DNA of 5,545 nt from Escherichia coli (GTDB lineage Bacteria; Pseudomonadota; Gammaproteobacteria; Enterobacterales; Enterobacteriaceae), in assembly GCF_003334385.1 (NCBI RefSeq), contig NZ_QOWN01000081.1; one strand, given 5' to 3'. Position numbers and translations under genes: made by a program. Below, piece by piece: positions 2-3,046 of the stretch. The notes under the pieces were generated by a model, which was not told the origin of the DNA, made no database searches, and was given only the letters and a program-made list of their open reading frames with translations. The number at the start of each line of letters is the position of its first letter. Within the stretch, counting starts at the first letter, position 1.

Positions 2-77
2 TGGTGGGTCGTGCAGGATTCGAACCTGCGACCAATTGATTAAAAGTCAACTGCTCTACCAACTGAGCTAACGACCC
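2..77 (-). tRNA. lysV: tRNA-Lys (anticodon UUU), 76 nt including encoded 3' CCA
   Basis: Reverse complement of 2..77 reads GGGTCGTTAGCTCAGTTGGTAGAGCAGTTGACTTTTAATCAATTGGTCGCAGGTTCGAATCCTGCACGACCCACCA. This gives a cloverleaf with anticodon loop CUUUUAA (anticodon UUU), a T-arm GGTTCGAATCC and a terminal CCA. It matches the E. coli tRNA-Lys sequence as I recall it. Position in the Val-Lys operon beside gltX suggests lysV. Confidence 0.93.
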
Positions 78-80
78 GAG

Positions 81-156
81 TGGTGGGTGATGACGGGATC
101 GAACCGCCGACCCCCTCCTTGTAAGGGAGGTGCTCTCCCAGCTGAGCTAATCACCC
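81..156 (-). tRNA. valU: tRNA-Val (anticodon UAC), 76 nt including encoded 3' CCA
   Basis: Reverse complement of 81..156 reads GGGTGATTAGCTCAGCTGGGAGAGCACCTCCCTTACAAGGAGGGGGTCGGCGGTTCGATCCCGTCATCACCCACCA. The anticodon stem-loop is CCUCC-CUUACAA-GGAGG (anticodon UAC), with T-arm GGTTCGATCC and terminal CCA. Only 3 bp (78..80) separate it from tRNA-Lys. The symbol is uncertain: it is the promoter-proximal copy (valU position) but also the copy directly abutting lysV (valY position in K-12 as I recall). Confidence 0.92.
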
Positions 157-173
157 CCGCTGTGTGGAGTCGC

Positions 174-201
174 ATTATAGGGAGAGTTCAAAATGAGTCA
201 A
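174..201 (-). promoter_or_regulatory. sigma70 promoter of the tRNA-Val/Lys operon, stringent-type
   Basis: Minus-strand reading gives TTGACT (201..196), a 16-nt spacer, TATAAT (179..174), then the GC-rich discriminator GCGACTCC. The mature tRNA-Val 5' end lies 17 nt downstream of the -10. An A/T-rich stretch upstream (about 203..245) could hold UP-element or Fis sites. Confidence 0.7.
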
Positions 202-321
202 CGCATTTTCTAAAGAAATTGTTCGTTCGTCGTAAATTTAAGCAAGATGATCGCAAAACAGACCGTGTTGCGCAATTTGTCAACGAAAACAATAATGCGT
301 AAGGTAGAAACCCGAACTACA

Positions 322-349
322 TTGAGGAATCAGGCGGGAGTGATAGAAT
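322..349 (+). promoter_or_regulatory. candidate gltX promoter (one of possibly several)
   Basis: TTGAGG (322..327), a 16-nt spacer, then TAGAAT (344..349) preceded by an extended -10 TG at 341..342. The predicted start near 356 would give a roughly 58-nt leader to the gltX ATG. An alternative candidate is AATAAT at 291..296. From memory, gltX has multiple promoters; none can be confirmed from sequence alone. Confidence 0.35.
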
Positions 350-414
350 ATCGCCCACTTAATTTTTCCAGGATTTGCCGGTTGTCGGCATCTTTCTAAA
401 CGTAAGGCCATTTC

Positions 415-1830
415 ATGAAAATCAAAACTCGCTTCGCGCCAAGCCCAACAGGCTATCTGCACGTTGGCGGCGCGCGTACTGCTCTTTACTCCTGGCTTTT
501 TGCACGTAACCACGGCGGTGAGTTCGTGCTGCGTATTGAAGACACCGATCTTGAGCGTTCCACGCCGGAAGCTATCGAAGCCATTATGGATGGCATGAAC
601 TGGCTGAGCCTGGAGTGGGATGAAGGTCCGTACTACCAGACCAAACGTTTTGATCGCTACAACGCGGTGATCGATCAGATGCTGGAAGAGGGCACTGCTT
701 ATAAATGCTATTGCTCTAAAGAGCGCCTGGAAGCGCTGCGCGAAGAGCAAATGGCGAAAGGTGAGAAGCCGCGTTATGACGGTCGCTGCCGCCACAGCCA
801 TGAGCATCATGCTGATGATGAACCGTGTGTTGTACGTTTTGCTAACCCGCAGGAAGGTTCTGTTGTTTTTGACGATCAGATCCGTGGTCCGATCGAGTTC
901 AGCAACCAGGAACTGGACGATCTTATTATCCGCCGTACCGATGGTTCCCCAACCTATAACTTCTGTGTGGTTGTCGATGACTGGGATATGGAAATCACCC
1001 ACGTTATCCGTGGCGAAGACCATATCAACAACACGCCACGCCAGATCAACATTCTTAAGGCCCTGAAAGCGCCGGTGCCGGTTTACGCGCACGTTTCTAT
1101 GATCAATGGCGATGACGGTAAAAAACTGTCCAAACGTCACGGGGCAGTCAGCGTAATGCAGTATCGTGATGACGGTTATTTGCCAGAAGCACTGCTGAAC
1201 TATCTGGTGCGTCTGGGCTGGTCCCACGGCGATCAGGAAATCTTCACTCGTGAAGAGATGATCAAATACTTCACTTTGAATGCCGTCAGCAAATCTGCCA
1301 GTGCGTTCAACACCGACAAGCTGCTGTGGCTGAACCATCACTACATTAACGCGCTGCCGCCGGAGTATGTTGCTACTCACTTACAGTGGCACATTGAGCA
1401 GGAAAATATCGATACCCGTAACGGCCCGCAGCTGGCTGATCTGGTGAAACTGCTGGGCGAACGCTGCAAGACGCTGAAAGAGATGGCACAGAGCTGCCGT
1501 TATTTCTACGAAGATTTTGCTGAGTTCGATGCCGACGCCGCGAAAAAACATCTGCGTCCGGTAGCGCGTCAGCCGCTGGAAGTGGTTCGTGACAAACTGG
1601 CCGCGATTACTGACTGGACCGCTGAAAACGTTCATCACGCTATTCAGGCGACGGCGGATGAGCTGGAAGTGGGTATGGGTAAAGTTGGTATGCCGCTGCG
1701 TGTCGCCGTAACCGGTGCGGGGCAGTCTCCAGCACTGGATGTTACCGTTCACGCAATTGGTAAGACCCGCAGTATCGAGCGTATCAACAAAGCGCTGGAT
1801 TTTATTGCTGAACGCGAAAATCAGCAGTAA
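415..1830 (+). CDS. gltX: glutamyl-tRNA synthetase (GluRS), class I aminoacyl-tRNA synthetase, 471 aa
   Basis: A 471-codon ORF with ATG at 415 and a Shine-Dalgarno AAGG 7 nt upstream. The translation carries the class I HIGH-type motif (HVGG, codons 16-19) and a KMSKS-type motif (KLSKR). A Cys-x-Cys-x24-Cys-x-His zinc-binding signature (C98, C100, C125, H127; nt 706..795) is present, as expected for E. coli GluRS. Length and N-terminus ([19 protein letters not shown]) match E. coli GltX as I recall. Confidence 0.97.
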
Positions 1831-1847: not shown

Positions 1848-1881
1848 AAACGGCAGGAGATAATATCCTGCCGTTTTTTAT
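1848..1881. terminator. bidirectional intrinsic terminator between convergent gltX and yfeD
   Basis: A perfect 7-bp GC-rich stem, CGGCAGG (1851..1857) pairing with CCTGCCG (1867..1873), encloses a 9-nt loop. It is preceded by an A-tract (1848..1850) and followed by TTTTTT (1874..1879), so either strand sees a hairpin followed by a U-tract. It sits between the gltX stop (1830) and the yfeD stop (1882). Confidence 0.75.
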
Positions 1882-2635: not shown

Positions 2636-2794
2636 AACAATTCCCTGAATGTATGTGGGTCTATTAGTAGTTCATTTTATAACACCACTTTACAGGAAAC
2701 CGTGACATGAATAACTACTGAATGCGAGCGGTTTTCCAAAATTGTTCATTTGCCTGATTTTTCAGCGATTGAAACTACACGTTGCAATTTGCCG

Positions 2795-2823
2795 TTGACA
2801 CATTCGGGCGGAATTCATATGAT
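2795..2823 (+). promoter_or_regulatory. sigma70 promoter of the tRNA-Ala (alaW-alaX) operon, stringent-type
   Basis: Consensus -35 TTGACA (2795..2800), a 17-nt spacer, then -10 TATGAT (2818..2823), followed by the GC-rich discriminator GCCGCCC. The first tRNA-Ala starts about 33 nt after the -10. Confidence 0.72.
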
Positions 2824-2855
2824 GCCGCCCGTCAACTCGACAAGCTTTACGTGAC

Positions 2856-2931
<76 letters not shown>

Positions 2932-2970
2932 AATTTTGCACCCAGCAAACTTGGTACGTAAACGCATCGT

Positions 2971-3046
<76 letters not shown>

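Follow-up and report, generated by a model that had tools for sequence, protein, structure and literature searches.

The gltX-valU intergenic region of Escherichia coli: known back-to-back, non-overlapping promoters with proposed rrn P1-style activation of the tRNA promoter

Introduction

The control region between gltX and the valU tRNA operon of Escherichia coli K-12 is already known, and it is an ordinary locus, not a new one. A first-pass annotation of the DNA studied here, made from the sequence alone, stated that the gltX/valU arrangement had been studied experimentally, and the citations of two papers dedicated to the region bear this out (Brun et al. 1990, J Mol Biol 214:845; Champagne and Lapointe 1998, Mol Microbiol 27:1141), the second of which, according to its title, has the influence of FIS on transcription from both promoters as its subject. 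In K-12 the tRNA operon reads valU-valX-valY-lysV, with three Val genes and a 4-nt spacer between Val and Lys. RNase E processing is reportedly among the findings of the 1990 and 1998 studies; the earlier of the two is said to have described more than one gltX promoter (three) and to have proposed a tRNA-Glu-like fold for the gltX leader.

Each half of the region can also be set beside other described systems. The rrnB P1 promoter combines a -35 hexamer TTGTCA, a 16-bp spacer and the -10 hexamer TATAAT with an 8-nt, G+C-rich discriminator (TATAATGCGCCACCA) and an A start 9 nt after the -10; upstream lie an A/T-rich UP region and Fis sites at -71, -102 and -143. The tyrT promoter drives a tRNA operon and also has a G+C-rich discriminator, with hexamers TTTACA and TATGAT and Fis sites at -71, -91 and -122; it is not back-to-back with a synthetase gene. 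The degenerate Fis consensus is recognizable by a G and a C that lie 14 bp from each other on either side of an A/T centre. On the synthetase side, the thrS operator is a leader stem-loop with an anticodon-like loop that immediately precedes the ribosome-binding site in the mRNA of an aminoacyl-tRNA synthetase. Here, the corresponding locus was analyzed in 5,545 nucleotides of one strand of an E. coli assembly (GCF_003334385.1, contig NZ_QOWN01000081.1); this whole stretch is referred to as the window, and coordinates are those of the window unless stated otherwise.

Results and discussion

Locus identity and gene order

The genes that frame the region, and a second tRNA operon further along the window, are as follows.

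2 to 77, minus strand: tRNA-Lys(UUU), last gene of the operon, lysV equivalent (ARAGORN; Rfam tRNA, 79 bits; RefSeq of the identical strain)
81 to 156, minus strand: tRNA-Val(UAC), sole Val gene of the operon in this strain, valU equivalent (ARAGORN; Rfam; RefSeq)
415 to 1830, plus strand: gltX coding sequence, glutamate--tRNA ligase, 471 aa (ORF list; RefSeq annotation)
2856 to 3046, plus strand: two tRNA-Ala(GGC) genes (ARAGORN; Rfam)

RefSeq gives the gene order of an identical strain as tRNA-Lys, tRNA-Val, gltX, yfeD, yfeC, two tRNA-Ala genes and pdeA. The spacer between tRNA-Val(UAC) and the gltX ORF start at 415 occupies positions 157..414 (258 bp) and is divergent, with gltX on one strand and the Val(UAC)...Lys(UUU) tRNA operon on the other, reading away. 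All 258 of its bases are identical to the gltX-valU intergenic region of K-12 MG1655 (NC_000913.3, 2520673..2520930; MG1655 coordinates equal 2521087 minus the window coordinate), so experimental results from K-12 apply to it directly. The flanking genes and their orientation are also identical, and differences from K-12 lie only outside the spacer: this is the same object. The boundaries, the motifs and the published start sites described below agree with the initial reading of a compact, 258-bp divergent region that serves gltX in one direction and a tRNA promoter in the other. The first 700 bases of the window gave a megablast match in 5,426 of 5,426 complete E. coli genomes.

This strain has one Val gene instead of the three of K-12, and its Val-Lys spacer is 3 nt long (GAG on the plus strand), not 4 nt. 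As one contiguous piece, the one-Val arrangement was found in only two of the 5,426 complete genomes (strains AS19-RrmA- and STK78-E), and the single Val gene is likely the result of repeat collapse by recombination between identical Val genes, or of assembly collapse. In several K-12-derived assemblies (records of E. coli BW25113 and J53) the match is limited to 383 bp, with two tRNA-Val genes annotated instead of three, a hint that even laboratory K-12 derivatives, or their assemblies, differ in the number of Val genes. Elsewhere in the window, a hairpin with an 11-bp stem and T-runs on both strands (1848..1876) sits between the convergent gltX and yfeD genes and looks, from its sequence, like a bidirectional intrinsic terminator. 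Term-seq placed a Rho-dependent 3′ end antisense to gltX at MG1655 2519434, i.e., window position 1653 on the minus strand (PMC7815308).

Conservation across Enterobacterales

Species-representative genomes were scanned with a degenerate pattern for the gltX N terminus, yielding 120 Enterobacterales loci. A divergent (Val-UAC)n-Lys(UUU) operon adjoined gltX in about 105 of the 120 species, with n between 1 and 4 and a gltX-tRNA spacer mostly 245-292 bp long; among these loci, the divergent arrangement was absent from Gilliamella and other Orbaceae. Counts out of 97 given below are based on a MAFFT alignment of 97 spacers, and because the species are related these counts are not independent of one another. 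Both core promoters were nearly invariant across the 97 species, while positions 246..319 were poorly conserved, even within the Enterobacteriaceae.

A few of the tRNA genes upstream of gltX were called oddly by ARAGORN: the promoter-proximal tRNA of Candidatus Symbiopectobacterium (locus L121) as “Cys(aca)” and two copies in Brenneria roseae (locus L024) as “???”. All are tRNA-Val(UAC) sequences that carry point changes or lack 1 nt in the anticodon stem, and they are probably decaying copies or sequencing errors.

The tRNA promoter

Leftward from the spacer, the promoter of the tRNA operon consists of the following elements.

196 to 201, minus strand: -35 hexamer TTGACT, 16 bp from the -10 (promoter scan; hexamer kept in 95/97 species, spacer length in 97/97)
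174 to 179, minus strand: -10 hexamer TATAAT (promoter scan; 97/97 species)
166 to 173, minus strand: G+C-rich discriminator of 8 nt, GCGACTCC (sequence; nearly invariant in 97 species)
157 to 165, minus strand: 9-nt 5′ leader of the tRNA precursor, with the start, an A on the minus strand, at 165 (PMC4176162)

The combination TTGACT-16-TATAAT matches the consensus at 11 of 12 positions. Only two matches of at least 11/12 occur in the whole window, both before tRNA operons (valU and alaW); dinucleotide shuffles gave 0.06 such matches per window, and none of 300 shuffles had two. The start of the valU operon has been placed 9 nt upstream of the mature valU 5′ end by Agrawal, Mohanty and Kushner, who note that EcoCyc gives this distance as 7 nt (PMC4176162). 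No valU start is among the start sites of Kim et al. 2012 (PMC3415461), and the Cappable-seq supplement has no entry for gltX or valU. Position 165 is T on the plus strand in 97/97 species. The leftward tRNA promoter proposed from the sequence alone (TTGACT, 16 nt, TATAAT and a GC-rich discriminator) was thus located correctly, as judged by its coordinates, the published start and its near-invariance in 97 species. The distance of about 17 nt from mature tRNA-Val that went with that proposal needs to be read differently: 17 nt (157..173) separate the -10 hexamer from the mature 5′ end, whereas transcription starts at 165 and the leader is 9 nt long.

The core closely resembles rrnB P1. Near-consensus hexamers are separated by 16 bp, the -10 is TATAAT, the discriminator is G+C rich and 8 nt long, with the same layout as that of rrnB P1, and an A start follows 9 nt after the -10; the two promoters also have the string CTCCCTATAATGCG in common. 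They differ in the -35 hexamer (TTGACT in valU, TTGTCA in rrnB P1) and in the product, which for valU is a tRNA precursor with a 9-nt leader, unlike that of rrnB P1. The tyrT promoter is likewise a tRNA operon promoter with a G+C-rich discriminator, with hexamers unlike those of valU. Given the signature in the discriminator sequence, the tRNA promoter would be expected to be under stringent and growth-rate control.

The same design recurs upstream of the alaW-alaX tRNA-Ala operon (2752..2855), where TTGACA (2795..2800), a 17-bp spacer and TATGAT (2818..2823) score 11/12. The discriminator (GCCGCCCG) is again rich in G+C, and a Fis-like site (GCCTGATTTTTCAGC) has its centre at 2759; if the start is taken to be near 2831, this corresponds to about -72.

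The A/T-rich segment and its Fis-like sites

The segment at 203..300 had been singled out as A/T-rich, which composition confirms (63% A+T versus 51% for the whole window). It had also been suggested to hold activator sites shared by the two promoters, and the following candidate elements were found in or near it in silico.

203 to 224, minus strand: UP-element-like A/T-rich block, -38 to -59 from the tRNA start (13/15 consensus positions; function predicted)
229 to 243, either strand: Fis-like site I, GTCGTAAATTTAAGC, centre 236, i.e., -71 from the tRNA start (G229 in 96/97 and C243 in 95/97 species; A/T core conserved)
249 to 263, either strand: Fis-like site II, GATCGCAAAACAGAC, centre 256, i.e., -91 (only G249, 87/97, C263, 84/97, and the A/T centre conserved)
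270 to 284, either strand: Fis-like site III, GCGCAATTTGTCAAC, centre 277, i.e., -112, or -80 from the gltX start at 357 (G270 in 73/97 and C284 in 71/97 species; T-rich centre)

The UP-like block matches 13 of 15 specified positions of the UP-element consensus; its proximal A-tract (T206..T209 on the plus strand) is invariant in 97/97 species. Fis-like sites were profiled with a simple home-made heuristic, free of alignment, which scored every offset in each species after anchoring on the -35 hexamer. The three highest mean scores fell at -71 (8.05), -91 (7.40) and -112 (7.29), against a background of 3.44 ± 1.10; weaker offsets at -56, -67 and -184 were also more than 2 sd above background. 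At the offset of site I, 96% of species scored at least 7. Heuristic sites with a score of at least 7 occurred in the spacer at no higher density than elsewhere in the window, coding DNA included. Calibrated on rrnB P1 and tyrT of MG1655, the heuristic recovered the Fis positions given above for both. In the stretch 244..290, which has otherwise diverged, what has been conserved is the G and the C, at a distance of 14 bp, that flank an A/T centre.

At the level of sequence, the upstream region is therefore of the rrnB P1/tyrT type, with an UP-like element at -38 to -59 and the nearest Fis-like site at -71. Site I has its counterpart in both systems and the site at -91 in tyrT, while the more distant sites differ (-91 and -112 in valU versus -102 and -143 in rrnB P1; a third site at -112 in valU versus -122 in tyrT). 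UP-element function and Fis occupancy of sites I-III would follow from this likeness.

It is unlikely that the retained G-N13-C blocks bind another protein, or serve DNA bending alone, to the point of being very improbable. The Fis score is a heuristic, and ChIP-chip in Salmonella Typhimurium put the gltX-valU intergenic region among the putative targets of FabR, together with several tRNA and ribosomal-protein promoters (PMC4804515). The FabR peak is called “putative” by its authors, though, and groups with other highly transcribed tRNA and ribosomal loci (PMC4804515); it may be a high-transcription ChIP artefact. The retained pattern of G, A/T centre and C, and the positions at -71 and -91, match what the heuristic returned at rrnB P1 and tyrT.

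Whether the segment is shared by the two promoters is a separate matter. In its strong form, the suggestion would have the A/T-rich middle act as a truly shared activating region, with one set of bound Fis molecules activating the tRNA promoter and gltX alike. The Fis-like sites do lie between the two promoters, with site III 80 bp from the gltX start, and the title of the 1998 paper has FIS influencing transcription from both. Relative to the gltX starts, the sites stand at -121, -101 and -80 (start 357) or -96, -76 and -55 (start 332); the canonical spacing of -71/-91/-112 holds for the tRNA start only, so it is to the tRNA promoter, and not to gltX, that the sites are phased. The stretch between site III and the gltX -35 (285..319) is, moreover, the least conserved part of the spacer. 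Fis is also said to stimulate valU and not to stimulate gltX, which counts against a shared activating region. We regard such sharing as unlikely: of the original suggestion, the activator sites stand as sequence predictions (an UP-like element and three conserved Fis-like sites), while their phasing points to the tRNA promoter.

The gltX promoter and its start sites

Rightward transcription toward gltX involves the following features.

322 to 349, plus strand: main promoter, with -35 TTGAGG at 322..327, a 16-bp spacer, TG at 341..342 and -10 TAGAAT at 344..349 (promoter scan; conservation)
357, plus strand: main gltX start, giving a 58-nt leader, after the G+C-rich discriminator ATCGCCC (Kim 2012, 33 reads)
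332, plus strand: second gltX 5′ end, giving an 83-nt leader, with a weak candidate -10, TACATT, at 318..323 (Kim 2012, 19 reads)
403 to 408, plus strand: ribosome-binding site TAAGGC, 7 nt before the ATG (A404, A405, G406 and G407 invariant in 97/97 species)
291 to 296, plus strand: AATAAT, candidate second gltX -10, not supported (no start, no conservation)

The supplement of Kim et al. 2012 (PMC3415461) reports two gltX starts, whose printed upstream 51-mers end at window positions 357 and 332. The first falls 8 nt past TAGAAT and confirms the promoter TTGAGG, 16 nt, TG-n-TAGAAT that the first-pass annotation had assigned to gltX; conservation in 97 species concurs. This is an extended -10 sigma-70 promoter, with TG one base before the hexamer and a mapped start 8 nt downstream. 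Its match to consensus is 9/12 plus the TG, which is not unusual by itself, as 10 sites of at least 9/12 were found where 6.2 are expected; the promoter is accepted on the start-site data and its conservation instead of this score. TTGAGG is kept in 94/97 species, the 16-bp spacer in 94/97, the TG in 95/97 and TAGAAT in 87/97.

The non-consensus bases themselves (the GG of TTGAGG and the G of TAGAAT) are kept in 94/97 and 87/97 species, respectively, a pattern of sequence that suggests selection for tuned, not maximal, promoter strength.

The second published start, at 332, lay outside what the initial reading had foreseen; no convincing or conserved -10/-35 accompanies it, and we infer its assignment to TACATT. 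The 5′-end mapping proposed as a check on that reading is available from published data in both directions (valU start at 165; gltX starts at 357 and 332). The main starts, 165 and 357, are 192 bp apart and the two -35 hexamers are separated by 120 bp, so the core promoters do not overlap.

A further gltX promoter had been proposed at AATAAT (291..296). The hexamer is present, matches consensus at 5 of 6 positions and has TTGCGC 17 bp upstream; a functional gltX promoter upstream of the main one could conceivably use it as its -10 and might be among the three reportedly described in 1990, in which case Fis at site III would occlude its -35 region. With this best -35, the pair scores 8/12, below the scan threshold. 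Across the 97 species, identity to E. coli at these positions is 10-36%, and it reaches only about 10-50% within the Enterobacteriaceae, so that AATAAT is unconserved even there. Kim 2012 lists no start near 303, downstream of the hexamer. A working promoter at AATAAT is therefore quite improbable.

Mechanically called ORFs at 87..302 and 247..399 were rejected as genes: they precede the mapped starts and fall in the DNA that is conserved least.

The gltX leader

Between the main start and the ribosome-binding site, the leader contains one structured element.

376 to 390, plus strand: leader hairpin UGCCG-GUUGU-CGGCA (scan, folding; pairing kept with compensatory changes)

The scan flagged 376..390 (TGCCGGTTGTCGGCA, followed by TCTTTCT) as terminator-like. 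Leader structure was judged by folding each species separately and by counting pairs. A hairpin is predicted before the ribosome-binding site in most of 92 distinct leaders (mean z = -1.27), and pairing is maintained by compensatory changes (C378:G388 to U:A in 23 sequences; G377:C389 to A:U in 7). RNAalifold on a MAFFT alignment of the 92 leaders returned no consensus structure because hairpins from different families were misaligned. The E. coli gltX leader, folded as a whole, showed no advantage over shuffled sequences (z about 0). Its minimum-energy structure (58 nt) pairs CUUA at the 5′ end of the mRNA (358..361) with UAAG (403..406) of the ribosome-binding site; a C/U-U-U run after the gltX start is common in other species, and the CUUA-UAAG pairing is very short. 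A single 454 read has its 5′ end at 382 (PMC2760140).

Structure conserved with compensatory changes, together with the terminator-like call, could point to a regulatory RNA, either a transcription attenuator or a mimic of the tRNA-Glu anticodon arm bound by GluRS as in the thrS operator. A genome-wide survey of 2009 did predict a “translational” attenuator at 360..407 (PMC2760140). The gltX leader also resembles the thrS operator in that the stem-loop lies just upstream of the ribosome-binding site of a synthetase mRNA. A mimic would, in addition, suit the tRNA-Glu-like fold reportedly proposed in 1990. Yet the loop sequences differ between genera, and gltX leaders, unlike thrS, show no conserved anticodon-like loop; no conserved UUC was found in the hairpin loop, which argues against a conserved tRNA-Glu anticodon mimic. 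The Term-seq tables (PMC7815308) contain no 3′ end within the gltX leader, a result that speaks against attenuation by termination. An intrinsic-terminator attenuator was rejected on this ground and because the stem is only 5-6 bp and the T-run interrupted. The absence of better-than-shuffled folding in E. coli weighs against a regulatory RNA, as does the search with Rfam covariance models (T-box, leader and sRNA), in which the only matches in the window above gathering score were the four tRNAs and no family matched the gltX leader. A regulatory RNA of either kind seems improbable to us, and the putative role of the hairpin is most likely in mRNA stability or in modulation of translation.

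A broader reading, which we hold only tentatively and think rather doubtful, would make the hairpin an uncharacterised post-transcriptional control or stability element for GluRS that, together with the three-site Fis array and the sub-consensus gltX hexamers, tunes the output ratio of synthetase to tRNA. A leader structure was reportedly proposed as early as 1990, so a regulatory hairpin would extend known work and not open a new category.

Proposed model and significance

Very probably, positions 157..414 correspond to the known region in which the promoters of E. coli gltX and of the valU-type tRNA operon stand back to back without overlapping, with activation of the rrn P1 style proposed for the latter. 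Leftward, a stable-RNA promoter of this style initiates at 165, 9 nt before mature tRNA-Val, and RNase P removes the short leader. Its strength would come from contacts of the RNA polymerase alpha subunits with the UP-like block at 203..224 and from Fis bound at -71, -91 and -112 (236, 256 and 277), on one helical face. The discriminator, the short spacer and the distant start would make for a short-lived open complex, with sensitivity of the promoter to ppGpp/DksA and growth rate as the expected consequence. In the rightward direction, gltX is transcribed mainly from the extended -10 promoter, with hexamers deliberately kept below consensus, from 357 and more weakly from 332. In the 58-nt leader, a hairpin of conserved structure precedes a strong ribosome-binding site. 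The observations on which this model is built are the identity with K-12, the motifs together with the published start sites, and conservation across the order; the tRNA and gltX promoters may in addition be coupled, and the leader hairpin may contribute to gltX expression.

As a discovery the locus carries little weight, because it is a textbook-style example already dissected by experiments in the 1990s. It is of use as a positive control: both main promoters were placed correctly by reading the raw sequence without tools. Comparison across species adds coordinates for a likely UP element and three Fis-like sites, and shows that the whole design, including the non-consensus gltX promoter and the leader hairpin, is almost unchanged across Enterobacterales.
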